Source: Candidatus Danuiimicrobium aquiferis (lineage in GTDB: Bacteria > Omnitrophota > Omnitrophia > Omnitrophales > Danuiimicrobiaceae). Taken from it: DNA of 64,000 bases. The notes beneath the pieces were generated by a model that did no database searches, had not been told where the DNA came from, and worked only from the letters and a program-made list of their open reading frames with translations. Every line of letters starts with the position of its first letter. The first letter of the stretch is position 1. The DNA lies in assembly GCA_001804285.1 (NCBI GenBank), contig MHFR01000042.1, positions 14,725 to 78,724 of the forward strand. The letters run 5' to 3'. Position numbers and translations under genes: made by a program. Below, piece by piece: positions 1 through 39,165 of the stretch.

Positions 1-85
1 AGTTTATAAAAATAGGCCGGATGAACTACGGAAAAATACACAAGATGCAAACCGCGTCAGATGGTATTTTGAGCAAATTGCAAGA

Positions 86-3000
86 TTGATTGATCAGGCA
101 GATTCTGAATTTTCAACGATGGACAGGGATCAAATTTCGCAACAGGGAATTCTAAGCACACATGAGCAATTTAAGCGGCATTTTCTCGCTTTACTCAAAC
201 GGCACGTGCAAGAATTTCAAGTTCCGATTTCTGAATATGAACTCCGGACATTCGTTTTAAAATGTCTAAAAGCTCCGGACTCACTTGATAAAGCGCTTCG
301 GGTAGAATTCAATTCCTTGTTGGATGAATTGGGAGCACTCAATTATCTCAAGATGGGCGAGTTGGCAGAAAGTTTTCAAACGTTAGCCGGCCGTTATGAA
401 GAATTAATAAAAGCCGCGGACAAAAAATGGATTCTTTCGGAGACGCGCGACCGAGTACAAATAGCGCAAAAAATTGCCGAAGACTTCGCCGGATTTGCGA
501 TAGATCCCAAGGATGAAGCGCGTAAGGTTTATGGACAAATGAGACGGAGCTCTATCCAGCGAAAAATTTTAAATCGGTTATCGCCGGTTCTTGCGGCTCA
601 TCAAGAGTTGCTTCAATCCGGATTGGAAGAGATTTACTTAAAAATTGATCTGGAAGAGAAAAATCGATTACGCAATCAATTCCATGCAAGCGATGTTCAT
701 GCCGCGGTGTTGGCTTATCTTCCGGAAGCGTTAAGGCCTTTATTTAATCTTGTGATTCAAACGATTGTTAAAAGACAGCCCGAAGATATTTTTGTTCATC
801 AGGCCGGTTTTCGGCTTGAATATTTTTTCGGACAGATCAATTTAAATGCGCGGAGCGCGGATCTTCTAAAAGATTTGAATCTTGTCGCGTATGCGGCGTG
901 GGAAATATTCCAAGCCTTGCCGCAAGTGGTGGCGGGGGCACGTTCCGAAGCGCGCAAAATTAGTGATAAGGCATCAGTCGTAAGGCATAAGAATTTAACT
1001 TATGCCTTAAGCCTTAAGCCTGAATTTTCGAGAGCCGAAGCGCGCAATACCCCGATGCGGCTTGACGTGACATTTCAAGGGACACCGTACAGATTTGAAA
1101 TGGATTCATGGAGTGTTGGCCAGAATCCCTCTCAATATCGGTTTCGATTATCGCAGGGCGTGCAGCACCGGGGCTATCTGATTGTTGATTACGATCAGCA
1201 AACAATCGGTTGGGAAGGGAAAGAACAGTTCCCGCGCGGTACGTTAATGGATCCGTTTTTAAAAGTGGCTTATGAGGCGTTGAAGGTAGATGAGAACAAA
1301 CGATCGGAAGTGCGGATGAAAGATAGTTCCGAGTTCCGGGGTAAAACAAAGAGATCAACTCGGAACTTTAAACTCGAAACTCAACCCCGTGCCCAAGTTC
1401 GTAACAATAAAGATAGTTCCAAGCAATTACCAATCGAAACGGACGAGAGTCCTCGCGAGACACAAGAGGCTCAAGCGAGGGCCGAAGCGCGGGGAATCGA
1501 ACAACAACTGGTCGGCACCTTTTTGCAAATGGCTTTATTTCATATACAGGACAACGCATCGCTTGCAGTTATTATAGAAGGTCCCGCGCCCAGAACTTTC
1601 TTTGAGGATCAAGACCAGCCGGAAGCAGTAGTTAATCGAGCGATAGGGCTTTTACAATCAATTTATGATCAAGTCAGAAGGGAGTCTCCTGACGGCAGCG
1701 GCGCTCCGTTTATTGTGAGAATGATGGAGATTTTGGGACGACCGACAGAACTGTTGCCAATGGACTTAGCTGCTGCGAAAAAATATTTTGCTTCTTCTGG
1801 TGAAGTGGCGGAAATAAAAAGCGAAAAGAAATTTGATCAATTTGAAGCACTTATGCCGGGCTGGCTTGCAAAACATCCGCCTTTTCTTTCGCAGTTAATT
1901 TCGGAACTTCCACCAATGGACGAAATCCAAAGGAAACATGGTGCCGCTCAAATACATACTGAAAATAGATATGCTGCCGGACCAATGAAACTTTTGGAAT
2001 GGAGTGTTCTGTTTGCAGGAAGTCCTCTGCGGCCCATTTATTATTATTTTGATTCAGATCCGGAATCGGGCGACATTGATAGCGTTACGGAAGTGGTTTT
2101 CGATTTAGCAGCTTATTTGAAAAGAGGGAAGTCCGGCGCGCATACGCTGATTTCGAGCGAAGAAATTGGGAGTCTATTCAAACAATTGGGACGATCTGAA
2201 GGAGCGACTCGATGGGTTATGACGGCTTCTTCTCCCGGTAGTTGGCAGAGCCGGATTAGCGTTACGCCAAGCGCTCAAGGGATGATGATTAAGATTGATG
2301 ACAATCATTTGGAATTTGATCCAAACACTCCTGACGATGAAGACGGCAACAAATTAATTAATTTTCTGAGGCAATATGGAATTGAGGAGCCGTTTTTTGG
2401 ATTGCCATTTCCGAAGCATGATGCTGCGACCACTGAGATAGCGCAATTTCTCGCCGATGTTTTTAAAGCCCGCGATGCGTTGCTTCGGAAATGGCGTATC
2501 CGGGCGAGTTTTGATCAGAGTTCCGGCCGAGTGACTTATGAAGCTGAAGGTGAAACCGTTTCTACGGATTTTGGTTACCAGGTTCCAATTCTTTCGGACA
2601 ACGGGGTTGTAACAGGGACGACGAAGGGGCCGGTTGAAGCAGAAATTAAAGACTTTCTTATGAAATTGGGAATTGATTTTAAGCCTTATGCGCAAGGGTT
2701 AACGATTCAAATGACTATCGGAAATGAGAATTATGATTTGGATGTGATCCATCATTTGCCTATCACGCTTGTAAAACTTGCTGAAGCTTTAGAAGCAAAA
2801 TCCAAAATGCCTTTCAGCGGTCACGGCCGGACAGTACCTGCGCTGGGAGTGTTAAATCAAGCAGGAGCTGTGCAATTGGTGACAGGCAGCTTAGACAAAA
2901 CCGTTCGTTTGTGGGACCTATCCACGGGTAAAGAAAGTAAGAAATTTGAAGGTTTCGCGGACGAAGTGACTGATGTTACCGTATCGCGTGACGGGCAGAA

Positions 3001-6000
3001 GGTGGCGGCGGCAAGCAAAGACGGCACGGTGAGGATTTGGAATGTCCAGTCAGATTCCGAACCAATCGTCATCGATACGCTTTCCGGGCCCCTTACTTCC
3101 ATTGATTTTTCTTTTGACGGCCAAAGGATTCTTACCGGCAGTAAACGCGGTGCGCTGCAACTTTGGGATGTGTTAATCGGTCGCTTTGTGGATGATTTGC
3201 CGATAAAGGCAAGAACAATTTTTGATGCCCAATTTTCTCCGGACGGACAAAGGATGGCTTCCTTATCCCATTCTATGGAAGATGGATTAAAGCTTTCCAT
3301 ATGGGACGTGCCTCAAAAGAAAATCATACGAACATTAGATCATGAGGCCTATCTGCAGACGTTTGCTTTTCATCCGAATGGCAAATGGTTGGTGACGGGA
3401 GATCAGGACTATCAAGTTTGTTTGTGGGACATTGAAACAGGCAGTAAACTCAGAACTTACCAGTCGGCCGTGAAACCCTTTGCTGTTGTTAATATACAAC
3501 CGCGCATTTTATCACTTGCCTTTTCTCCGGATGGGAAACTGGTTGCGGCCGGGAAACTGGATGGCAGTATTGAAGTGTGGGACGTTGAAACCGGCGGATC
3601 TCGTTACCTTTTCCAGAATTTGCCATTTAATGTTCCTACTTTAACATTTGCTCCGGATGGCCAATCTCTTATTTATTCAGGGTACAGACATAATGATACT
3701 TTTTTTGCGCCCATGCCGAGGATTATTGACTTGAGGCGCTATCCACAAACTTTCGTTTCGCATCGATATGGAAGAAGCGTTTCAAATGACGTGAGGCACT
3801 TCGTTTCAGGCGGGCAAGACATTACCCGTTCCGAAGTTCGTGAAGAAGAAGTGGCAGTCGGCAGTCAACAGTCCACAGATGTCATTGCGAGGAGCGGTAG
3901 CGACGAAGCAATCTCAGATTTGGGGATTGCTTCGGCAACACCTGGTTCACGTCTCGCAATGACGGGTAAATCCAGGGCCGAAGCGCGGGAAGGAAGCGCA
4001 CAAGTTCAAAAGAGCACACGTGCACAAGAAAATACGGAAACTTATGCGCCTATACCTGGTGCTCCTGTTCTCTTGCGAAGCAGCAGGTCTGAATCGCGGG
4101 CGGATGTTGATCCTAGGGTTTCTTCAGAACGTCATCGTGGTTCCCGACAACGCGGAGATAAAGGGAGTCGTCCATCCAGTCAAATGACAAACGGTAATGA
4201 ATATCAATTCGCGCTTCCCAAATATTTTTCGTTCCCTGGATTTTCTTTACATGGAGCGATGGATGTCGTGGATTTTCAGCAAGTATTTGGATTTGGCGGT
4301 CAGTTTTCTTTTGGATTGCAGATGGAAGAACTTGATAAAATTTTTGAAAGCTTTCGTAAGCGTATATTTTCACGAGTGGAGAAGTTTCAACAGTTCTTTA
4401 GCCGTGCCATTGCCCAAGATGCGTTTTGCGCGTTTGTTCTGGCTGGCAACGCTTTCTTTGGCTTGCCATTCCTTCGTCCAAAAATAAGCTTGGTCTGGAT
4501 TAATAGCAGAACGGCTTTTCAAGAAGATCGCAAACCTCAACACCTCTTGAGCTTCCGCCTCGGACAGCTGCTTAAAAATGATCGGCAGAATTTTATGAGT
4601 TTTCTTCGTTTCCATGTGCAAAATCTTAACACAGCACTCCATTTTATTCAACAGGAACTAACCGCTCGTTTGGAAATCAGCGGGGATATGGTGAATGGTA
4701 CGACTAATTACCACCAACCACTAATCACTAATCACGGACAAGTGAGGGCCGAAGCCCGCAACCTTGCGGCAGAAAATGGGACATTTTCTGCAATACCAAT
4801 CGAGGCGGGCAAGAGTACTTTTGATGTTTTGCCAGAAGCATCAAAACGTGCCGAAGCCCGGAAATCCGTGATATTAAGTTCGGGTAGAAACGGGAATACT
4901 CAAATTGATATGTTGAATATGGGTGAGAGGAATCCGGCGGCTCGCGTCGAGGATCTCCAAACCGAACACGCGCCCGTCTTTTCCGATGTCCATGATAATA
5001 CCGTCCCGGACTTTAATAGATTTTCCGACCTTTCCGGGTTGAAATCGTATGTAGAGCGCATCCGCTTCTTTATCAAATTCTATTTTCATCGGTTAACCCT
5101 TTTCCTCGAGCCAATAAGCCGTTATCAAAACCGTTTGATCCGCTTCCTTTTTGTAGACGACTTCCAGAATGTTATCATAGAAACGCTTTCTCGCCAAATA
5201 TCTTCCTCGATGAGCTTCTTTGGCGTTATCGGGACAGGTTACCGTTTCTTCGATCTGGCGTTGACTCAAATCCCGCTGCAAAATCCGTTTCTTGATATGT
5301 TTCGTGTATCTGAAAGTCATGAGTATCAGCTTCCATTATTAAAGAATAGGCAGCATAATAAGCCAGAAATGACTAATAATCAATATAATTATGCAGCAAA
5401 ATCAACCCGCTCCGAAGCGCGCCACGCTGAGGATAGCACCCAAGAAGTTTTTAATCAAAGCGCGCAAATGTCCTCGATACCGTCAAAATTGTTTACATCG
5501 AGGGCCGAAGCCCGCAACCTTGAAGCGGAAAATGGGACATTTTCTGCAACACCAATCGAAGCGGGCAAGAGTACTTTTGATGTTTCGACAGAAACATCAA
5601 AACGTGCCGAAGCGCGGATGCTTAAAGGTTTTAATACAGAGCAAAAAGCAATTATCGAAAAGACAGCGCATAAGCTGATCATGTTGTTCTTTTCTGACAA
5701 ATCCGTCACGGAACAGAATGCTTTGGAAAAAGATTTGATCAGCCGGATCCATCCCGCGACGTTGAGGCGGGTTATCTTTAGCAAAACAACTCTCATGACA
5801 ATCTCATGGACCCTGTGTATATCGGTCCTGCCGTTTGTTTTTCATCTATATAAATTAGTTGCTGTGTTTGGTTTTTTTGGCCTTTTTGCTCTGGGAAAGA
5901 TATTGGATCAGACCCTCAATGAAGAGACGCTGGGCTTTGTCAGCAAAGCCTATCCCGAAATATTTATCGGAACAGAATTGCCCGGATTTAAATTTGAACG

Positions 6001-9000
6001 CGGGGTCATTCATGAAATGCTGCACGTGTTGGCTAAAATGAAAAAAATTAAATATGATTCCCCATTCGCTTCCGCATTCGGCTTTCTGGCGGAGCATACT
6101 TCCTCGGATCCCGGGAAACCGCAGCTTTCCCCTTATCTGAGGCGTCCTGTTGGCAATTTGGGGGAAGGGATGGCGTTGGTTGAAAAAAATTTATCACCTC
6201 AAGAACGATGGGGGGCCTTGATTGCAAAATCGCTTTTTTCTGACAATTCTGAAAACATAACCAAACAAGATCCACGTGACTTTTTTGTCTCTTTAGCGCA
6301 TTGGTTGGAACCTGAAACGCGGGAATCCCGGGTATTGGGGGAATTATTGTCTGGGATGGCTTATGCCCTATCTCAGAAGAATTGGTTTGGTCTCGAGGAT
6401 GCGTGGGTTTATTTGGCCCGCATGGCAAAAGGAGAGCATCCTTTTGCTGTAGAAGAAGACCTAAACAATAAACAAAAAGAAAGAATATCCCATTCCAAAT
6501 TCCGCTCCGAAGCGCGCCAAGAGAGCGCACAAGAACACAAGCGCACAGGGACACAAGTAGAGATGAAAGCTGACGCGCCTGTGCCTTATGCTCCCATGCT
6601 CTTACGAAGCAGGGCCGAAGCGCGTTACAGCCGCAATAATCCAGAGCAGTCATCAATCGAAACGCGCAAGAGTCCTCGCGAGACACAAGAGGCTCAAGCG
6701 AGGGCCGAAGTGCGCGACGATAAAGACAGTTTAAAGCGTTCATCAATAGGAAGTGCACGAGAGTCCTCGATACGTTCCGAAGGGCTTGTATCGAGGGCCG
6801 AAGCCCGGACAATCTCAGAGCAAAAACGCTTTAGCCTGACACTGGAACACGTGAAGCCGCTTATTGAAAGAATTGCTGACACAGCCTATTTCCGTTGGCT
6901 TGCTAGAGATAAAGACAGCAGAACCGGTAAAAATGAAGGATTCGAAAAAGTGCAATGGCGGCGCTTGATAGATATTTCTGATCGTGCATGGGATCTTGAA
7001 AGTATGAGGCGGGAAGCATTAGGACAACTAGAAAAGTCCAATATGAACCCGGAATATTTAGAAAAAATAAAAAGCGAAACAAAAATAGAAATAATTATTT
7101 TGGAATATTTCGAGGAAGTTTTAGGGAGTTTAATCGGGAAATTAGAGTCTCCATTGAAATTGTCATTGAAAATGTTTTTGTTAAAAGCATACCCGCGTTC
7201 TGGGGAATGGACGGACTCTTTATTGGAAGAGGGAGCTATCGAAGCTGCGCGGAAAGAATATTATGACATCATTAATGAAATACTTAAGTGGCTTGATCCA
7301 ACATCAGTTTTGGAACGAGTTAATTCTCCCGAAGATTATCGAATTGATGTTTTAGGGCGGCCCAAGGATGGAGATATCCCTCGGATGGTTGACTTTCGAG
7401 GCAAACTTATCGCCAGAGAGAAAAAAGCCAAGCACCGAGCACCGTTTGCTTTTCGAAACGAACGGTTTGATACGATGATTCAAATTGGTCCCCAAGGCCT
7501 GGAAGAAGAAGAGATGCGCTTTCTTCAAAGTGCTTTTGATGAAAAGCCTGAAACTGATTCAGCCCCTACATTTTATGCCGTATTTTTTCCTCCATTTAGC
7601 TATTTATTGATCAGGAGATCGGTAATTAAGCAACGCGTAGTTTTCGATGTTGTTCCGGGTCGATGGGAGAAAGCGGTTCCGAATCCTAAAAAAATGCTCC
7701 CCTTTTTTATTAAGCGAGTGATCGATTACTATCAATTATTAGATAATCGCAAACCTCCTCAGATTTTGCTCGAGTTAGCTACGATCCCCATGCATTGGAA
7801 TGAAAGAAAGGTTCTTTTTGAGGAAAGCTATTTTGAGCCAGGTGATCCGGATTTTCGATCTGCGGCAACAACATATCCAGTACATTTTGAAAATGTATTG
7901 CGTAAGATTCGCTCCCGTTCCGAAGCGCGCCACCTTGAGGATAGCAATGATGTCATTCCCGCGAAGGCGGGAATCCAGCTGGATCCCCACTTTCGTGGGG
8001 ATGACACCGATTCCCGTGCCGAAGTACGTTCACAGATAGAAAAGACAAAACCCGAAAGTCCGATGGATTTGGTATTCGAGACTTTAGATCCACAAAAAAT
8101 AGCTGCTCAGATTGCAGCATCTAAGTATATAGAAGGTGAACTTGGAGAATTGAGCGCTCAAGTCACAAAAACAGGGCAAGGCAAACTGGATTCTGCGAAA
8201 GTCGAACTGGGCGCATTTTCGAAAAATTTAATAACAGAAATTAATAAACGTTCTGAAGTAAGACAAATTGCGGATTTTATATTTTCCGACGAAATAGAAC
8301 AGATGGCCAAGGATAGGGTGAATTTGTCATTCCCGCATGCTGTAAGCGGGAATCTATGGATCCCCGCTTTCGCGGGGATGACGGACGTGCTTATTAATCG
8401 TGCGCGTCTGGTTGTTTTCAATTCTGTTATTGGAGAGAATATTGCGATGGCCGATGAAGCATTACCAGCTTTGAGTGAGATCTCAAGCGAAGCGGCATTT
8501 TTACTCGCGCATCCGGATATTTTGAATGAAGCATATCGAATCAAATTTGGAAAAAGAACAGACAATGCAACCATACGCGCCGATCACGAATGGATCATCG
8601 GCATGGAATTTTTACCTCAAGCGTCAGATCCGCGGAGAATGGCGGCTGAACAGTTTTTGCGGAATTTAGTGCAAGCAAAAGACCGGGTGGCATTGACTTA
8701 TCAAAAAAATTCTCCTTACGCCGATATGGCAAGCGAGTTATCACAATCAATTCCGCAATTGTCACTTGTGGGGCACCGGTCAGATCTTGATCAAAAGAGA
8801 TTCGAAAGAGTATTTGGTATTTCGTATCCGTTTGTTATTGTGTCGGATAGCGTACCGTTTAAGACATCAACATGGCGGAAAAACGGAGTTCGCATTAATC
8901 CATATATGGCGCTTCGGTTGAAATTGGAATTTTCACAATTTATACGGCTGACACAATTTGCTGTCGAAGCCGGACTTCTCCGGAAGCAAATAGAAGAAAT

Positions 9001-9112
9001 TTCCGGAGTTTTTCCAGAATTAACACCTGAAATTCTTAATTCGGCTATAGATCTTCTGAATGAGCTTGCTCAGACGGAACTTGTTAGGCAGGCAATTAAT
9101 CGGGCGGCGTAA
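86..9112 (+). CDS. Giant (~3000 aa) multidomain protein with a central 7-blade-type WD40 beta-propeller; interrupted in-frame by repeat modules, MITEs and antisense TA cassettes
   Basis: A single 9027-nt open frame cannot arise by chance at this GC. WD40 repeats (LWD/IWN/VWD motifs with GH..WD spacing) lie around aa 930-1200. Non-repetitive segments look like ordinary globular protein. The start is uncertain: TTG at 86 or ATG at 119. A terminator hairpin plus T-run follows at 9176-9232. Confidence 0.6.
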   Translation: MIDQADSEFSTMDRDQISQQGILSTHEQFKRHFLALLKRHVQEFQVPISEYELRTFVLKCLKAPDSLDKALRVEFNSLLDELGALNYLKMGELAESFQTLAGRYEELIKAADKKWILSETRDRVQIAQKIAEDFAGFAIDPKDEARKVYGQMRRSSIQRKILNRLSPVLAAHQELLQSGLEEIYLKIDLEEKNRLRNQFHASDVHAAVLAYLPEALRPLFNLVIQTIVKRQPEDIFVHQAGFRLEYFFGQINLNARSADLLKDLNLVAYAAWEIFQALPQVVAGARSEARKISDKASVVRHKNLTYALSLKPEFSRAEARNTPMRLDVTFQGTPYRFEMDSWSVGQNPSQYRFRLSQGVQHRGYLIVDYDQQTIGWEGKEQFPRGTLMDPFLKVAYEALKVDENKRSEVRMKDSSEFRGKTKRSTRNFKLETQPRAQVRNNKDSSKQLPIETDESPRETQEAQARAEARGIEQQLVGTFLQMALFHIQDNASLAVIIEGPAPRTFFEDQDQPEAVVNRAIGLLQSIYDQVRRESPDGSGAPFIVRMMEILGRPTELLPMDLAAAKKYFASSGEVAEIKSEKKFDQFEALMPGWLAKHPPFLSQLISELPPMDEIQRKHGAAQIHTENRYAAGPMKLLEWSVLFAGSPLRPIYYYFDSDPESGDIDSVTEVVFDLAAYLKRGKSGAHTLISSEEIGSLFKQLGRSEGATRWVMTASSPGSWQSRISVTPSAQGMMIKIDDNHLEFDPNTPDDEDGNKLINFLRQYGIEEPFFGLPFPKHDAATTEIAQFLADVFKARDALLRKWRIRASFDQSSGRVTYEAEGETVSTDFGYQVPILSDNGVVTGTTKGPVEAEIKDFLMKLGIDFKPYAQGLTIQMTIGNENYDLDVIHHLPITLVKLAEALEAKSKMPFSGHGRTVPALGVLNQAGAVQLVTGSLDKTVRLWDLSTGKESKKFEGFADEVTDVTVSRDGQKVAAASKDGTVRIWNVQSDSEPIVIDTLSGPLTSIDFSFDGQRILTGSKRGALQLWDVLIGRFVDDLPIKARTIFDAQFSPDGQRMASLSHSMEDGLKLSIWDVPQKKIIRTLDHEAYLQTFAFHPNGKWLVTGDQDYQVCLWDIETGSKLRTYQSAVKPFAVVNIQPRILSLAFSPDGKLVAAGKLDGSIEVWDVETGGSRYLFQNLPFNVPTLTFAPDGQSLIYSGYRHNDTFFAPMPRIIDLRRYPQTFVSHRYGRSVSNDVRHFVSGGQDITRSEVREEEVAVGSQQSTDVIARSGSDEAISDLGIASATPGSRLAMTGKSRAEAREGSAQVQKSTRAQENTETYAPIPGAPVLLRSSRSESRADVDPRVSSERHRGSRQRGDKGSRPSSQMTNGNEYQFALPKYFSFPGFSLHGAMDVVDFQQVFGFGGQFSFGLQMEELDKIFESFRKRIFSRVEKFQQFFSRAIAQDAFCAFVLAGNAFFGLPFLRPKISLVWINSRTAFQEDRKPQHLLSFRLGQLLKNDRQNFMSFLRFHVQNLNTALHFIQQELTARLEISGDMVNGTTNYHQPLITNHGQVRAEARNLAAENGTFSAIPIEAGKSTFDVLPEASKRAEARKSVILSSGRNGNTQIDMLNMGERNPAARVEDLQTEHAPVFSDVHDNTVPDFNRFSDLSGLKSYVERIRFFIKFYFHRLTLFLEPISRYQNRLIRFLFVDDFQNVIIETLSRQISSSMSFFGVIGTGYRFFDLALTQIPLQNPFLDMFRVSESHEYQLPLLKNRQHNKPEMTNNQYNYAAKSTRSEARHAEDSTQEVFNQSAQMSSIPSKLFTSRAEARNLEAENGTFSATPIEAGKSTFDVSTETSKRAEARMLKGFNTEQKAIIEKTAHKLIMLFFSDKSVTEQNALEKDLISRIHPATLRRVIFSKTTLMTISWTLCISVLPFVFHLYKLVAVFGFFGLFALGKILDQTLNEETLGFVSKAYPEIFIGTELPGFKFERGVIHEMLHVLAKMKKIKYDSPFASAFGFLAEHTSSDPGKPQLSPYLRRPVGNLGEGMALVEKNLSPQERWGALIAKSLFSDNSENITKQDPRDFFVSLAHWLEPETRESRVLGELLSGMAYALSQKNWFGLEDAWVYLARMAKGEHPFAVEEDLNNKQKERISHSKFRSEARQESAQEHKRTGTQVEMKADAPVPYAPMLLRSRAEARYSRNNPEQSSIETRKSPRETQEAQARAEVRDDKDSLKRSSIGSARESSIRSEGLVSRAEARTISEQKRFSLTLEHVKPLIERIADTAYFRWLARDKDSRTGKNEGFEKVQWRRLIDISDRAWDLESMRREALGQLEKSNMNPEYLEKIKSETKIEIIILEYFEEVLGSLIGKLESPLKLSLKMFLLKAYPRSGEWTDSLLEEGAIEAARKEYYDIINEILKWLDPTSVLERVNSPEDYRIDVLGRPKDGDIPRMVDFRGKLIAREKKAKHRAPFAFRNERFDTMIQIGPQGLEEEEMRFLQSAFDEKPETDSAPTFYAVFFPPFSYLLIRRSVIKQRVVFDVVPGRWEKAVPNPKKMLPFFIKRVIDYYQLLDNRKPPQILLELATIPMHWNERKVLFEESYFEPGDPDFRSAATTYPVHFENVLRKIRSRSEARHLEDSNDVIPAKAGIQLDPHFRGDDTDSRAEVRSQIEKTKPESPMDLVFETLDPQKIAAQIAASKYIEGELGELSAQVTKTGQGKLDSAKVELGAFSKNLITEINKRSEVRQIADFIFSDEIEQMAKDRVNLSFPHAVSGNLWIPAFAGMTDVLINRARLVVFNSVIGENIAMADEALPALSEISSEAAFLLAHPDILNEAYRIKFGKRTDNATIRADHEWIIGMEFLPQASDPRRMAAEQFLRNLVQAKDRVALTYQKNSPYADMASELSQSIPQLSLVGHRSDLDQKRFERVFGISYPFVIVSDSVPFKTSTWRKNGVRINPYMALRLKLEFSQFIRLTQFAVEAGLLRKQIEEISGVFPELTPEILNSAIDLLNELAQTELVRQAINRAA
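937..1047 (+). repeat. Repeat cluster 1 inside giant ORF: 2 copies of degenerate direct repeat (core CCGAAGCGCG) flanking a ~80-nt palindromic module
   Basis: The two repeat copies are 'cgttccgaagcgcgc' and 'gagagccgaagcgcgc'. The spacer holds a perfect 11-bp hairpin, taaggcataag/cttatgcctta. The translation is in frame: ARSEAR...SRAEAR. Confidence 0.6.
1300..1497 (+). repeat. Repeat cluster 2: 3 degenerate repeats and 2 modules (~73 and ~77 nt); second module is a near-identical copy of one at 6655-6715
   Basis: Repeat copies are 'cgatcggaagtgcgg', 'cccaagttcgt' and 'gggccgaagcgcgg'. Module 1 holds a 10-bp hairpin, gttccgagtt/aactcggaac. The module 'caatcgaaacg..agtcctcgcgagacacaagaggctcaagcgagggccgaag' recurs about 95% identical at 6655. 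Confidence 0.6.
3828..4100 (+). repeat. Repeat cluster 3: 3 degenerate repeats (ccgaagttcgtg / gggccgaagcgcgg / tctgaatcgcgg) with ~130 and ~100-nt modules, immediately upstream of antisense TA cassette 1
   Basis: In-frame translations are RSEVR, RAEAR and RSESR. The module peptide 'YAPIPGAPVLLRSSRSESR' resembles 'PVPYAPMLLRSRAEAR' at 6570-6625. Confidence 0.5.
4113..4373 (-). CDS. Type II toxin, RelE/ParE family
   Basis: 86 aa. The C-terminal region reads 'NPRHPSLHVKKIQGTKNIWEARIDIHYRLSFDWMDDSLYLRVVGNHDDV', typical of RelE/ParE. The start overlaps the stop of the upstream antitoxin by ATGA. It lies antisense and fully inside the giant ORF. Confidence 0.7.
   Translation of the reverse strand: MKIYAYESFQKFYQVLPSAIQKKTDRQIQILAENPRHPSLHVKKIQGTKNIWEARIDIHYRLSFDWMDDSLYLRVVGNHDDVLKKP
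4370..4651 (-). CDS. Antitoxin, DUF2281-like, partner of RelE/ParE toxin
   Basis: 93 aa, immediately upstream of and overlapping the toxin gene. The motif 'EAQEVLRFAIFLKSR' resembles DUF2281 antitoxins. Confidence 0.5.
   Translation of the reverse strand: MNKMECCVKILHMETKKTHKILPIIFKQLSEAEAQEVLRFAIFLKSRSAINPDQAYFWTKEWQAKESVASQNKRAKRILGNGTAKELLKLLHS
4740..4866 (+). repeat. Repeat cluster 4 between the two TA cassettes: 'gagggccgaagcccgcaacc' + ~90-nt module + 'cgtgccgaagcccgg'
   Basis: The module 'gaaaatgggacattttctgcaataccaatcgaggcgggcaagagtacttttgatgtttt' recurs about 95% identical at 5533-5590. The motif gggccgaagccc can form a GGGC-CGAA-GCCC hairpin. Confidence 0.6.
4874..5089 (-). CDS. 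DUF2283-family protein (putative antitoxin of DUF4258/DUF2283 pair)
   Basis: 71 aa. 'MKIEFDKEADALYIRF...GKDGRVFGLEILDAS' matches the DUF2283 signature. It follows the DUF4258 gene with a 3-nt gap. Confidence 0.7.
   Translation of the reverse strand: MKIEFDKEADALYIRFQPGKVGKSIKVRDGIIMDIGKDGRVFGLEILDASRRIPLTHIQHINLSIPVSTRT
5093..5320 (-). CDS. DUF4258-family protein (putative toxin of DUF4258/DUF2283 pair)
   Basis: 75 aa. 'MTFRYTKHIKKRILQRDLSQRQIEETV...VLITAYWLEE' matches DUF4258. It lies antisense and fully inside the giant ORF. Confidence 0.7.
   Translation of the reverse strand: MTFRYTKHIKKRILQRDLSQRQIEETVTCPDNAKEAHRGRYLARKRFYDNILEVVYKKEADQTVLITAYWLEEKG
5400..5620 (+). repeat. Repeat cluster 5: 'gctccgaagcgcgcc' / 'gagggccgaagcccgcaacc' / 'cgtgccgaagcgcgg' with ~80 and ~85-nt modules (duplicate of module at 4760-4845)
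   Basis: Directly read from sequence. In-frame translations are RSEAR, RAEAR and RAEAR. Confidence 0.6.
6500..6815 (+). repeat. Repeat cluster 6: 5 degenerate repeats with ~95, ~75, ~60 and ~15-nt modules (includes copy of ESPRETQEAQA module)
   Basis: Repeat copies are 'gctccgaagcgcgcc', 'agggccgaagcgcg', 'gagggccgaagtgcgcg', 'cgttccgaaggg' and 'gagggccgaagcccgg'. Confidence 0.6.
7915..8035 (+). repeat. Repeat cluster 7: 'cgttccgaagcgcgcc' ... 'cgtgccgaagtacgt' flanking an in-frame copy of MITE family A
   Basis: The in-frame translation is 'RSEARHLEDSNDVIPAKAGIQLDPHFRGDDTDSRAEVR'. Confidence 0.6.
7951..8005 (+). repeat. MITE family A copy (double hairpin gtcattcccgc-gaag-gcgggaatcc / ggatcccc-actttc-gtggggatgac) inserted in-frame in giant ORF
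   Basis: The same element occurs in intergenic regions at 11529, 17724, 25221, 31967 and 39010. It has outer gtcat..atgac inverted ends. Confidence 0.8.
8326..8382 (+). repeat. MITE family A copy inserted in-frame in giant ORF (translates SFPHAVSGNLWIPAFAGMTDV)
   Basis: The sequence is 'gtcattcccgcatgctgtaagcgggaatctatggatccccgctttcgcggggatgac', almost identical to the intergenic copy at 31967-32030. Confidence 0.8.
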
Positions 9113-9175: not shown

Positions 9176-9232
9176 AAAAAAGGGGACACACAGCTCGACC
9201 AATTCGAACAAGCTGTATGTCCCCTTTTTTTA
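9176..9232 (+). terminator. Rho-independent terminator after giant ORF
   Basis: The stem is ggggacacacagc / gctgtatgtcccc, followed by a run of 7 T. It is nested in a larger imperfect palindrome spanning 9140-9280. Confidence 0.7.
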
Positions 9233-11413: not shown

Positions 11414-11528
11414 TTGAAAAAATGCCCCATGAAATAAAGAATATTTTTTGAGAATAAATTCACAAGTAAACCATTAGTAATTGTTTAGTGTTTCGAAGGG
11501 ATTATCTATAAATGGTATGTTCATTTCT

Positions 11529-11595
11529 GTCATTCCCGCGAAAGCGGGAATCCAGACGAATAGCTGGATGCCCGCTAAAAACATGCGGGCATGAC
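11529..11595 (+). repeat. MITE family A copy (intergenic)
   Basis: 'gtcattcccgcgaaagcgggaatccagacgaatagctggatgcccgctaaaaacatgcgggcatgac'. Confidence 0.8.
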
Positions 11596-11678
11596 AACAA
11601 ATGGAAACTGCCGTTGCTTCAAAACGCTAAATAGATACTTATTAATCAGTAAAGAAACGATTTGAAAGGAGCCGGAAG

Positions 11679-16328: not shown

Positions 16329-16376
16329 CCCTCACCCTAACCCTCTCCCTCGGGGAGAGGGCAGGGGTGAGGGGTG
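16329..16376 (+). repeat. GC-rich nested palindrome family B (ccctcaccc..ccctctccc-tcgg-ggagaggg..gggtgaggg)
   Basis: The same architecture occurs at 26835-26881. An expanded copy sits in-frame in the GH1 gene at 22981-23140. Confidence 0.8.
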
Positions 16377-17623: not shown

Positions 17624-17880
17624 TGTCTCATTAACTCCTCGGCGCTCGGACAACGTCCGCCAAGGGCGGCCGAACTCGCGGCGAGGAGTTAATGAGACAA
17701 CTGGTTTACATCTACTCATAATTGTCATTCCCGCGGAAGCGGGAATCCAGACGCCGCTTTGGGCTCCCCGGACTTGTCCGGGGGGGAATGGCGCCCGAAG
17801 GGCGAGCCGAGCAGGGAACGAAAAAATTCCCAGCGAGGCCAGATGTTGGAAGGTGCCCCGGGCTTGCCCGGGGGGAAACC
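17624..17880 (+). repeat. Repeat-packed intergenic region: 19-bp-stem palindrome (ttgtctcattaactcctcg...cgaggagttaatgagacaa), half copy of MITE family A (17724-17750), and two ccccgg..ccgggg hairpins
   Basis: The inverted repeats were read directly from the sequence. The 'ccgaactcgcgg' core recurs at 22054-22080 and 22165-22176. Confidence 0.7.
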
Positions 17881-22080: not shown

Positions 22081-22364
22081 AGCTGCCGCTTATTATCCAA
22101 GCTACGGAAAATTTTGTTCGAGAAAAATAACAATGAAAGAAAAAAGGCGTAACATGGTGGTTATCCGCGAGTTCGGGAAAAGCGATTGACTTTCACTAAT
22201 TAGCTTTTTCCGCTGTCCGTCCTTGAGCCTCATTAAATTTTATTTATTGGGGAAGCTCAAGAACGGTACTGACTACCGAATTAATACTATCTTTGCGTTT
22301 CTTAAATGAAAGTCAGTGCCGAGCGGGAACCACCATGTTGCGCCGGTGGGTTAAGGTGTCTATG

Positions 22365-23789
22365 AAAAAGGAAAAATTTTCCTTTCCACCCAACTTCCTT
22401 TGGGGCGCAGCCACGTCCTCGCATCAAGTCGAGGGGGACAACCGGAATAATGACTGGTGGGAGTGGGAAGAAGCGGACCGGGTGAAGGAAAAATCCGGAA
22501 AAGCCTGTGACCATTGGAACCGGTTTCGTGCGGATTTTGCGCTTGCGAAATCGCTCGGCCACAACGCGCACCGGTTTTCCATTGAATGGAGCCGGATCGA
22601 GCCGGAAGAAGGCATATTCAGCGAAGAAGCGCTTTATCATTACGGTGAAATGATTAAGACGCTCCGGATATTCGGAATCGAGCCGATGGTGACATTCTAT
22701 CACTTCACGATTCCGCTTTGGTTTGCGAAAAAAGGAGGGTGGCTTCTCGATGAATCTCCCGAAATTTTTGCGCGCTATGTGAGAAAGGTGGTTGAAACAA
22801 TCGACACGCCGGTCCGTTACTGGATTACGATGAATGAAATGATGGTGTATGTCTACAAAGGATTTATTGCCGGAGAATGGCCGCCGGGTGAGAAGTCATA
22901 CGAAAAAGCATTTCGCGTGTTGGGGAATTTGTTAAGAGGGCATGTGCTTGCCTACCAAGTCATTAAAGAGATAACCGCCACTCACCCCCTCCACACTAAT
23001 GGCGGGCAAGCTAACCCTCTCCCTCAGGGAGAGGGCAGTCCAAACTCCCACAGGCAGTCCTTGCAGCGAAGCGGAGAGGGCAGTCCAAACTCCCACAGGC
23101 AGTCCTTGCAGCGAAGCGGAGAGGGCAGGGGTGAGGGGTTGGTTGGTGTTGCGCAGTTTTCGGCCGTTTATGCGCCTTGTTCAAAATGGTCGTGGCGGCA
23201 TCGCTTATCGACATGGTTCCGGGCAAAAATGACAAATCATCTTGCAACCGAAGCGATGGTTTACGGAAAAGTGAATTATCCGGGTTTGTTTCAAATTAAA
23301 CTGCCGCGTGCCAGGACGCTTGATTTTATCGGGATTAATTATTATACGCGCTATTTCATTCACAATCGCGGATTTAACGCAGCAGGCCTTTTGGGTGATG
23401 ATTGCACGCTCGAACATCATCGCGATGTGGGCAAGCGAACCATGATGGACTGGGAAATTTATCCTCGCGGACTTTCTCAGCTGGTGAAAGAATTTTCAAA
23501 ATATAAATTGCCGATTTTGATTTCCGAAAACGGAATAGCAACCGCTGATGACAATGAACGCGCGGAATTTATTCAGAATCATTTGGGCGAACTCGCTCGC
23601 GCGATGTCCGAAGGTGCAAACGTCATCGGTTACCTTTATTGGTCCCTTCTCGACAATTTCGAGTGGGCCGACGGTTTTTTCAAACGTTTTGGCCTCATTG
23701 AAATCGATTACACCAACCAGCACCGCCGCGTCCGAAAGTCCGCGGAAAAATTTGCAGAGATTTGTGCTCACGGAGAAATTTTGATATAA
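22365..23789 (+). CDS. GH1 beta-glucosidase carrying an in-frame ~55-aa insertion derived from a palindromic repeat
   Basis: GH1 motifs are intact: 'FLWGAATSSHQVEG', 'HRFSIEWSRIEP', 'TMNEM', nucleophile 'ISENG' and 'WSLLDNFEW'. ATG 22365 with RBS 'aaggtg' is the likely start. Confidence 0.8.
   Translation, partial: KKEKFSFPPNFLWGAATSSHQVEGDNRNNDWWEWEEADRVKEKSGKACDHWNRFRADFALAKSLGHNAHRFSIEWSRIEPEEGIFSEEALYHYGEMIKTLRIFGIEPMVTFYHFTIPLWFAKKGGWLLDESPEIFARYVRKVVETIDTPVRYWITMNEMMVYVYKGFIAGEWPPGEKSYEKAFRVLGNLLRGHVLAYQVIKEITATHPLHTNGGQANPLPQGEGSPNSHRQSLQRSGEGSPNSHRQSLQRSGEGRGEGLVGVAQFSAVYAPCSKWSWRHRLSTWFRAKMTNHLATEAMVYGKVNYPGLFQIKLPRARTLDFIGINYYTRYFIHNRGFNAAGLLGDDCTLEHHRDVGKRTMMDWEIYPRGLSQLVKEFSKYKLPILISENGIATADDNERAEFIQNHLGELARAMSEGANVIGYLYWSLLDNFEWADGFFKRFGLIEIDYTNQHRRVRKSAEKFAEICAHGEILI
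22981..23140 (+). repeat. Family-B GC-rich palindrome plus 48-nt perfect tandem duplication, inserted in-frame in GH1 gene
   Basis: The element runs 'ccctctccctcagggagaggg' ... 'gggcaggggtgaggggt'. The unit 'gagggcagtccaaactcccacaggcagtccttgcagcgaagcgga' occurs twice, encoding GEGSPNSHRQSLQRSG twice. Confidence 0.8.
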
Positions 23790-24643: not shown

Positions 24644-25081
24644 ATGGATAGATTAAAAAGATTATTTTTATTAGGATTGCTTTTTTTTATTCTGACTGGC
24701 GCCGATTATACTGATTATGAAGAATTCAAAGTGAAGTGGATCCACAGTGTGGCACAGGAAGTGACGCTGAAAGGGGAGTCCGGCATTTATCCCGTCAAAC
24801 CGTGGACTAAGGAATGGGACACAAATGGGGACTTGAAAATTGATTCCCGCGAAATAGTTCCGATGCTGAAATTTGTCGAAGATTGGCGAGTCCACCGGTT
24901 GTGGCAGGTGGTCCACAAGATTGATGCCGAAGGGGCTGATAAAGTCCATATTACTCGGAAACGTTTTCTAAGTAAGTGGGACACAAACGGCGATTGGTAC
25001 ATTGACTCCACGGAAGTTGCTCCCGTAAGGGAAGAGTTAAACAGGGTGAACGATCAGCGTCTTCAGGACGGACACTATTAG
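24644..25081 (+). CDS. Secreted EF-hand-like calcium-binding protein
   Basis: It has a signal peptide and two DxNxDxxIDSxE loops: 'DTNGDLKIDSREI' and 'DTNGDWYIDSTEV'. Confidence 0.5.
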   Translation: MDRLKRLFLLGLLFFILTGADYTDYEEFKVKWIHSVAQEVTLKGESGIYPVKPWTKEWDTNGDLKIDSREIVPMLKFVEDWRVHRLWQVVHKIDAEGADKVHITRKRFLSKWDTNGDWYIDSTEVAPVREELNRVNDQRLQDGHY

Positions 25082-25220
25082 CATAATACTCGTAATAATT
25101 AAATATAAGTCATAAAAAATTCCGGAATATTTTCTCGCGATAACGCACCGGCGGGCAGACAAACGTTTATTCCGTGGCCATGTAAAAAGAAATCATACAA
25201 GTAAAATTGTGGCCTTTCGT

Positions 25221-25322
25221 GTCATTCCCGCGAAAGCGGAAATCCATAGTTCGATGGATCTCCGCTTAAAGCACGGCGGAGCAGTGCTGCTTCGCTGCAT
25301 GAGGGGATGACATAAAGTACGG
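25221..25322 (+). repeat. MITE family A variant with expanded second hairpin
   Basis: 'gtcattcccgcgaaagcggaaatcc...ggatctccgc...gaggggatgac'. Confidence 0.7.
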
Positions 25323-26834: not shown

Positions 26835-27624
<790 letters not shown>

Positions 27625-31940: not shown

Positions 31941-31966
31941 AAGCGGTTTCGTAAGTTCGCACAAGT

Positions 31967-32030
31967 GTCATTCCCGCATGCTCTTAGCGGGAATCCACAG
32001 ATAATGGATCCCCGCTTTCGCGGGGATGAC
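31967..32030 (+). repeat. MITE family A copy (intergenic, immediately after rnfD)
   Basis: 'gtcattcccgcatgctcttagcgggaatccacagataatggatccccgctttcgcggggatgac'. Confidence 0.8.
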
Positions 32031-32071
32031 AGATCTTATGAAACCGCTTCGAATAAGTTTTTGGAGAAAAT

Positions 32072-39009: not shown

Positions 39010-39165
39010 AATTTTATCCCCGCAATGTTTTAAGCGGGGATCTCTAATGCATGGATTCCCGCTTCCCCGGAAATACAGGGCCAGCCCTCGCTTTACCGAG
39101 GGAAAGCATGCTCGCCTCTGCGAAGCTAAAGCTTCGCTACGGCGGAGCAGGGCGGGAATGACAAA
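39010..39165 (+). repeat. MITE family A variant (ttatccccgc..gcggggat ; ggattcccgc ... gcgggaatgac with ~100-nt internal expansion)
   Basis: It lies between rho and rpmE. Confidence 0.6.

Follow-up and report, generated by a model that had tools for sequence, protein, structure and literature searches.

In a 64,000-nt stretch of the genome of Candidatus Danuiimicrobium aquiferis (Omnitrophota), hereafter the window (contig MHFR01000042.1, positions 14,725 to 78,724, forward strand), two short segments of a giant protein-coding gene are very probably dimers of a widespread hairpin of the repetitive extragenic palindrome (REP) type, which were taken into the coding sequence of the gene and are carried there as passenger peptide. 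The hairpin is that of the known family described as CGTC-1 REP, as dRS3, or as NTS and Ssn-related motif (SRM), and not a new miniature inverted-repeat transposable element (MITE). By translation, the giant open reading frame (ORF, frame 2) meets no stop between the left end of the window and 9112, and the features concerned are the following:

2 to 9112, forward strand: 3' part (9.1 kb) of the giant gene, with a WD40 propeller and a conserved C-terminal domain ending in ...NRAA.
7951 to 8006: REP dimer 1, a tags-outward (HH) CGTC-1/NTS pair made of units 7951-7978 (+) and 7979-8006 (-).
8325 to 8383: REP dimer 2, made of units 8325-8357 (+, a 9-nt loop variant) and 8356-8383 (-, with a CGTC tag).

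Dimer 1 (tGTCATTCCCGCGAAGGCGGGAATCCAGCTGGATCCCCACTTTCGTGGGGATGACa, 7951-8006) is translated in frame as VIPAKAGIQLDPHFRGDD and dimer 2 (tGTCATTCCCGCATGCTGTAAGCGGGAATCTATGGATCCCCGCTTTCGCGGGGATGACg, 8325-8383) as SFPHAVSGNLWIPAFAGM, each adding 18-19 residues to the giant protein; the frame-2 translation over both sites (...SNDVIPAKAGIQLDPHFRGDDTDSRAEVR... and ...VNLSFPHAVSGNLWIPAFAGMTDVLIN...) bears out what a sequence-only reading of this DNA had stated, namely that two copies of a palindromic repeat lie inside the giant coding frame and are read through. The second hairpin of dimer 1 carries a compensatory stem change (CCCCAC/GTGGGG), and unit 8325-8357 of dimer 2 has, besides its 9-nt loop, the tail CTA. 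The nearest relative of dimer 2 in the window is an intergenic copy at 31966-32031 (86% for the first hairpin, 97% for the second), the spacer being 7 nt shorter in dimer 2. Measured from GTCAT to ATGAC, the dimers of the ORF (54 nt for dimer 1, 57 nt for dimer 2) are the shortest seen, 99 dimers elsewhere spanning 56-84 nt (median 70, a single one at or below 57 nt), which suggests selection for compact versions that preserve the frame; their spacers are of 2-3 nt versus the usual 15-25 nt. Four of the six reading frames of the dimer are free of stop codons, so that read-through is not improbable provided the frame is kept.

The multi-copy nature of the repeat, also claimed from the sequence, is well founded: when 3 mismatches are allowed, the 25-mer GTCATTCCCGCGAAAGCGGGAATCC is found six times in the window, at 7952(+), 8358(-), 11529(+), 17724(+), 25221(+) and 32006(-), versus 0.00 expected from 100 dinucleotide shuffles. 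A looser hairpin pattern adds a match at 39055, and a decayed copy is given at 39010-39080 by a repeat finder and by looser searches, which brings the copy number to about seven loci in the 64 kb window. Outside the giant gene these are:

11528 to 11596: clean intergenic REP dimer, between a glucoamylase-like gene and the next gene.
17723 to 17751, forward strand: single intergenic hairpin of NTS type, followed by an unrelated G+C-rich hairpin.
25220 to 25312: intergenic REP dimer whose right half is partly decayed, with extra DNA.
31966 to 32031: clean intergenic REP dimer of the same subtype as dimer 2, with a GTCAT-to-ATGAC distance of 64 nt.
39010 to 39080: decayed intergenic REP dimer without GTCAT tags, between rho and rpmE.

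Each of the five intergenic copies has genes of the same strand on both sides, and most of them follow the upstream gene at a short distance. It had been said that the same double hairpin stands at all of these loci; all are indeed related to the repeat, but only 11528-11596 and 31966-32031 are clean dimers resembling the pair in the ORF. As single-stranded DNA (ssDNA), the window copies fold into two hairpins each, usually closed by a GTCAT/ATGAC stem (z from -3.9 to -6.4), and none of 200 shuffles folds as well as the repeat copies. A search of the whole window against Rfam returned no match. An additional REP remnant is visible at about 39150-39165, and a small ORF just upstream of the copy at 25220 (24644-25081) contains two internal repeats, WDTNGD(L/W)(K/Y)IDS(R/T)E, with a weak match to the EF-hand.

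The family to which the repeat belongs can be recognised from the architecture of the hairpin, which comprises a (C/T)GTC tag, an 8-bp stem ATTCCCGC/GCGGGAAT with a loop of 4 nt, or of 9 nt in one unit, and CCA as tail, in the pattern TGTC-ATTCCCGC-GAAR-GCGGGAAT-CCA with GAAG or GAAA as loop; the tag reads TGTC at 7951, 8325, 11528 and 31966, and CGTC on the minus strand at 8383. CGTC-1 REPs are described as having a CGTC/TGTC tag, an 8-bp stem beginning with AT, a 4-nt loop (loop variants being reported) and a CCA tail, and as forming mostly HH dimers (Di Nocera, De Gregorio & Rocco 2013, PMC3733652). The likeness to the window repeat thus extends over tag, stem, loop, tail and HH dimers, and also over the location, mostly behind genes and between ORFs of the same direction, and over the occasional in-frame intragenic dimer of about 20 aa, sometimes two per ORF. 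What differs from that survey is the host, an Omnitrophota genome outside its scope, the unit with a 9-nt loop, and the gene concerned, which encodes a 7,000-aa protein and not a housekeeping enzyme. CGTC-1 was equated in the same paper with dRS3 of Neisseria and RPE-6 of Rickettsia conorii, RPE standing for Rickettsia palindromic element; the equivalence with RPE-6 is taken from that literature. More recently, the 28-nt NTS, CGTCATTCCCGCGMAVGCGGGAATCYRG, an extended dRS3, was generalised as the SRM (Nat Commun 2025, PMC11893778). Relative to the NTS consensus, units 7951-7978 and 11528-11555 have a single difference, at base 1 (T for C), and seven hairpins in the window match the SRM search motif.

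The tags-outward arrangement is common to all four clean dimers of the window and to the 99 dimers from other genomes. In a scan of one genome per species, the same dimer was found at no fewer than 119 loci in many phyla, with, among the matches listed, hosts in the Alpha-, Beta- and Gammaproteobacteria, Desulfobacterota, Gemmatimonadota, Chloroflexota, Nitrospirota, Planctomycetota, Omnitrophota, many Patescibacteria and others, including the cultured Povalibacter, Devosia, Sphingopyxis, Azospirillum and Glaciimonas. The hairpin ends are near-identical across phyla, while the 15-25-nt spacers differ between genomes (loci L002-L120), and this cross-phylum distribution is a further likeness to NTS/SRM. 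Dimer loci number only 20 (L146-L165) among 2.9 million viral contigs, and only hairpin matches of 31-47 nt, in Azospirillum, were found in the plasmid collection. A literature search for the peptide strings of the repeat returned no paper.

Two other identities were considered and set aside. The REPIN, associated with RAYT transposases, likewise consists of two inverted REP hairpins separated by a short spacer and can adopt either two hairpins or a single long one, but it carries a GTAG tag where CGTC/TGTC is found here, the partner proposed for the present hairpin in the literature is a GIY-YIG nuclease, and no Y1 transposase was detected among 15 ORFs scanned with Pfam, including the neighbours of the copies. 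The MITE label chosen by the sequence-only reading is right as to the inverted repeats, the two hairpin units being mutually inverted with 30-nt arms that are 83% complementary, as in terminal inverted repeats, and possibly as to the ends, which match those of NTS-ssn-NTS units. It does not suit a REP family already described, nor copies devoid of target-site duplication: no direct repeat is common to the flanks of the four clean copies, the recurring T...A being bases of the tags.

What could have produced such dimers? A possible answer comes from the genes that the hairpin surrounds. SsnA, a 94-aa GIY-YIG nuclease, binds and cuts the NTS as ssDNA, NTS-ssnA-NTS gene arrangements have been noted across phyla, and in Neisseria NTS repeats modulate the recombination of transforming DNA (PMC11893778). 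Rifle-aquifer contigs contain small GIY-YIG genes between two inverted hairpin copies (L134, 2861-3209; L135 and L139, 2962-3310), the right hairpin overlapping the 3' end of the called gene, so that the unit looks like a dimer with a gene as spacer. In an Omnitrophota locus (L017, 6686-7589), a GIY-YIG gene (MKTQVMPKLYYVYVLASKRNG...) is found amid same-strand hairpins, three on one side and one on the other. The nuclease genes bracketed by hairpins are of about 100 aa (Ssn-type), with at least 7980 close GIY-YIG relatives in the protein database. As the ends of the dimer match those of NTS-ssn-NTS units, 'miniature derivative' is a fair description, and we infer from these shared ends that the dimers may be gene-less miniatures of a hairpin-nuclease unit. 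A difference from the NTS/SRM-Ssn system is that the window is without an ssn gene; any nuclease activity or role in transformation would be putative here. The two best-looking database matches for an ssn gene of this genome were both on contigs of other organisms.

Translation of such palindromes has precedents. The survey of 2013 reported intragenic REPs of the CGTC and GTAG types in several species, more than half of them as dimers or clusters adding 20-30 aa, sometimes two per ORF, R. conorii having the largest number of intragenic CGTC cases (PMC3733652). The comparison with Rickettsia RPEs made by the sequence-only reading is therefore closer than it had claimed, given that CGTC-1 is equated with RPE-6: in both cases palindromic repeats lie in frame within ORFs that stay open and add a short peptide, and the giant ORF is of this kind, the repeats lying wholly within an open and otherwise bona fide gene. 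The differences are that the classic RPE-1 measures 100-150 bp, and that orthologues with empty sites are available in Rickettsia and not here. The accompanying statement that such insertions are rare elsewhere does not hold, as in-frame REPs are reported in these several species, and in-frame dimers were found here in an Omnitrophota ORF of 992 aa or more (L063, ...SVIPAKAGIQKHLGLDSRPRGNDH...) and in a 673-aa membrane protein from a genome of 32% G+C (L064, ...LSFPRKWESRNYRLVLDSRFRGNDKK...). Within the window itself, a GH1 beta-glucosidase gene (22293-23789) contains an in-frame palindrome of another family, CCCTCTCCC-N3-GGGAGAGGG, in an insert at about 23000-23140 that includes a perfect 45-nt tandem duplication (23028-23117) and is read as ...ANPLPQGEGSPNSHRQSLQRSGEGSPNSHRQSLQRSGEGRGEG...; the best solved GH1 homologue (PDB 1vff_A) aligns in two blocks with about 55 extra query residues between them. 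Together with the documented cases, L063, L064 and GH1 indicate that in-frame palindromic insertion is habitual in this genome and not rare outside Rickettsia. A second REP-like family, a nested palindrome CCCTCACCC..CCCTCTCCC-N3-GGGAGAGGG..GGGTGAGGG, was also noticed in intergenic DNA just downstream of genes, at 16329-16373 and 26835-26880 (also 23015-23035).

On longer contigs of the same population the full-length giant gene encodes 7008-7050 aa, and the WD40 propeller is at aa 935-1232 of the window translation. The proteins of the window are identical residue for residue to those on MHFE01000031.1 (GCA_001805325.1) and in several ENA/Logan assemblies from the Rifle aquifer. In a supplementary table of PMC10066038, GCA_001805325.1 is entered as Omnitrophota, Omnitrophales, 'Danuiimicrobium aquiferis'. 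Exhaustive HMMER searches detected distant homologues for two regions of the giant gene, within other giant proteins of 2104-4071 aa, and the C-terminal domain shared by this family always ends in ...(A/H)AA; these distant giant homologues, including the C-terminal domain, argue that the gene is real.

Both dimers lie in or near a particular type of linker. The sequence-only reading had noted that dimer 1 is flanked by two copies of a CCGAAGCGCG-type repeat, which are indeed present (7916-7930 and 8015-8029), but as codons for a peptide motif, R[SA]E[AV]R, and not as a DNA repeat. The giant ORF has 20 copies of this motif, all of them in frame, versus one strict match over six frames in the remaining 55 kb of the window. 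Its codons vary (CGT, CGC, CGA, AGG or AGA for the first Arg; Ser or Ala as second residue), while the peptide is conserved in homologues of about 30% identity, which argues for selection on the peptide rather than on a DNA target; CCGAAGCGCG was rejected on these grounds both as a DNA repeat and as a target-site duplication. The motif copies are often in pairs 90-102 nt apart, and several of the spacers between paired copies contain hairpins: dimer 1, an 83-nt element of another family, and perfect 9-12-bp stems at 981, 1325, 4769, 5575 and 6765.

941 to 8263: R[SA]E[AV]R sites (n=20), for example 941, 1031, 1478, 3827, 3974, 4745, 4847, 5408 and 5501.
Further sites of the same motif, for example 5603, 6503, 6611, 6701, 6794, 7916, 8015 and 8249.
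7916 to 7930, forward strand: RSEAR codons upstream of dimer 1.
8015 to 8029, forward strand: RAEVR codons downstream of dimer 1, forming a 99-nt 'cassette' with the site at 7916.
8249 to 8263, forward strand: RSEVR codons, starting 77 nt upstream of dimer 2.
3881 to 3963: palindromic element of a different family (GTCATTGCGAGG...CTCGCAATGAC, 83 nt), in frame as VIARSGSDEAISDLGIASATPGSRLAM, between RSEVR (3827) and RAEAR (3974).
981-1009, 1325-1367, 4769-4791, 5575-5602, 6425-6447 and 6765-6796: perfect hairpins of the giant ORF with 9-12-bp stems, mostly in motif-pair spacers.

The element at 3881-3963 has the same GTCAT/ATGAC ends as the dimers, and the SRM search motif does not match it. 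Perfect hairpins are seven in the 9.1 kb of the giant ORF versus 1.2 expected from codon shuffling, and about four in the approximately 49 kb of the other ORFs of the window. The association extends to other giant genes: R[SA]E[AV]R is also present in three large ORFs of a contig from the same aquifer (L001), and RSE[MVAIL]R stands directly ahead of domain starts in the distant homologues P0002 and P0003; the motif is a candidate processing or linker motif at domain boundaries. The giant ORFs of L001 also contain in-frame perfect palindromes with 13-24-bp stems, located as follows:

L001, 1270-1329, 4134-4186, 4527-4600, 7450-7478, 9760-9811 and 10616-10656: palindromes.

A palindrome of L001, AAAAAGGGGACAG...CTGTCCCCTTTTT, comes right after RAEARNLE and resembles the terminator-like hairpin found behind the giant gene of the window (9176-9230).

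The scenario envisaged is that the two dimers would have joined the coding sequence of the giant gene through insertion or recombination, and would have survived because the element can be read without a stop codon in four of its six frames, because the net length change kept the frame, and because they landed in poorly constrained, charged linkers bounded by R[SA]E[AV]R. The outcome would be 18-19 'passenger' residues per dimer, for which no sign of a peptide function was seen. Since the same sequence is found with sharp boundaries in non-coding DNA, here and in other genomes, the ORF segments are repeat-derived and not selected as protein, and this comparison makes a strong, although indirect, case that the copies in the ORF were probably inserted. 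The simplest reading of their location is that motif-bounded linkers tolerate almost any stop-free insert.

Several observations weigh against this scenario. No orthologue with an empty site was recovered, protein and DNA searches giving about 30% identity at best: a word-indexed protein search with the C-terminal 736 aa returned only P0001, which shares the repeat module alone; back-translated scans of genome and metagenome collections found no orthologue, an exact-DNA metagenome scan for the dimer-1 subtype gave 0 matches, and the 52-aa repeat module used as a protein query had no match, probably because of the word index. A 96%-identical fragment, P0005 (locus L133), is uninformative on the empty site, as it begins inside dimer 2. 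All assemblies of the population that span the sites carry both copies, with no presence/absence variation, and site 1 is covered by no homologue found. At site 2, P0008 and P0016 (about 30% identical) can be aligned on either flank and contain nothing of the repeat peptide, but they have 13-19 unrelated residues in its place. Between an FSD anchor and the conserved helix that follows, P0008 has 31 aa, P0016 has 25 aa and the window has 31 aa, 19 of the latter being repeat-derived; without the repeat, the window linker would thus be of 12 aa versus 25-31 aa in the homologues. An unrelated segment of similar length points to a possible replacement, or a variable loop, rather than a clean addition. 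Conservation of the peptide in homologues had been named beforehand as the observation that would overturn the interpretation; this could be applied at site 2 only, with homologues of about 30% identity, and the peptide is not conserved there. In addition, the length is 54/57 nt from GTCAT to ATGAC and 56/59 nt with the tags, so that the net insert length is not fixed, and lengths in multiples of three are not used as evidence since the exact insert boundaries are not fixed either. No ssn-like gene was found in the window with a tblastn probe. Finally, P0001, an otherwise unrelated protein of 1089 aa from the same aquifer, contains a dimer that is 53/54 identical, with the same compensatory stem change and at the same distances from RSEARNLE and RAEVR, while its flanks are only about 70% identical; this match is not easily explained by pure chance and tolerance. 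A recent exchange of linker modules, homogenisation of the repeat, or a site preference would each be sufficient to account for it.

Could the apparent read-through result from unrelated contigs joined at repeat copies? In favour of this, short-read (Logan) contigs and the variant contig L133 end inside the copies. Breaks at 8326, 8356 and 11544 are nevertheless what a multi-copy repeat produces, and they argue against a chimeric join. Both copies are spanned by six independent assemblies obtained from different samples and with different assemblers, of which four are exactly the window and two have one base change in 12 kb; there is no interruption at the copies in frame, in motif pattern or in homology to the C-termini of other giant proteins, and an assembly artefact is barely credible. 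As for the contigs themselves, the short-read contigs of the same population (the Logan contigs L130, L131 and L132, and L133) start at window position 8326, 8356 or about 8366 and end at 11544. In the variant L133, a premature stop cuts short the C-terminal domain of the giant gene, and both the 3' end and the DNA downstream of it are different. Retention of the dimers for a function, whether as sites for cutting by Ssn, as recombination hot spots through which modules of the giant gene are shuffled, or as structures in the mRNA that would stall ribosomes or guide processing at domain boundaries, would agree with the excess of perfect hairpins in this ORF, with the long perfect palindromes that likewise fill the giant ORFs of L001, with a dimer better conserved between two genes than its flanks, and with the effect of the NTS on transforming DNA in Neisseria. 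The hairpins nevertheless belong to several unrelated sequence families, as expected of opportunistic insertion, the same elements occupy ordinary intergenic positions, the population is invariant at both sites and direct support is nil, making this explanation very unlikely.

Targeted insertion is somewhat harder to dismiss. It supposes that the element, or its mobiliser, recognises the DNA coding for R[SA]E[AV]R (CGNKCCGAAGYRCG) or a short stretch flanked by two of these sites. Of the four in-frame elements examined, three (dimer 1, element 3881 and the P0001 dimer) are located between paired motifs, the P0001 dimer at the same spacing in an unrelated protein, and some CGTC-1 dimers of other species have been reported inside fixed palindromic targets (PMC3733652). 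The motif is, however, maintained at the protein level, as seen above from its changing codons and Ser/Ala alternation; it flanks neither the five intergenic copies of the window nor about 100 dimers elsewhere, it is present on one side only of dimer 2, and a recent exchange of linker modules between genes explains P0001 equally well. Targeting is thus quite unlikely, and the target preference that had been proposed is not demonstrated, insertion tolerance in linkers explaining the position of the repeats at least as well. Carriage of repeat dimers as passenger peptide is the interpretation retained here.

A wider hypothesis, which we regard as rather unlikely, is that the spacers between paired motifs in Omnitrophota giant proteins are systematically built of in-frame palindromes (CGTC-1 dimers, the GTCATTGCGAG element and other hairpins with 9-24-bp stems), the linkers being safe landing sites or even preferred targets, and the translation of repeats a route by which these proteins acquire or exchange linker modules and grow. 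What is new in the present case is the Omnitrophota host, the setting in a 7,000-aa protein and the tie to motif-bounded linkers, the repeat family and its occasional translation being known already. One practical consequence is that the peptides VIPAKAGIQ, SFPRKRES, RFRGND and IPAFAGMT are translations of the repeat, and should be read as repeat-derived wherever they are met, real proteins included. At the two sites the repeat peptides are of the forms VIPAKAGIQ... and SFPH...AGMT. Taken together, these results extend translated CGTC-1/NTS repeats to the Omnitrophota and to giant genes, and join around one hairpin three literatures, on dRS3/NTS-Ssn, on CGTC REPs and on Rickettsia RPEs. The cleavage points of Omnitrophota giant proteins are stated to be unknown (preprint 10.1101/2023.11.21.568195); the linker motif and the hairpin-rich linkers represent the more novel lead, and the motif is testable as a cleavage-point candidate.

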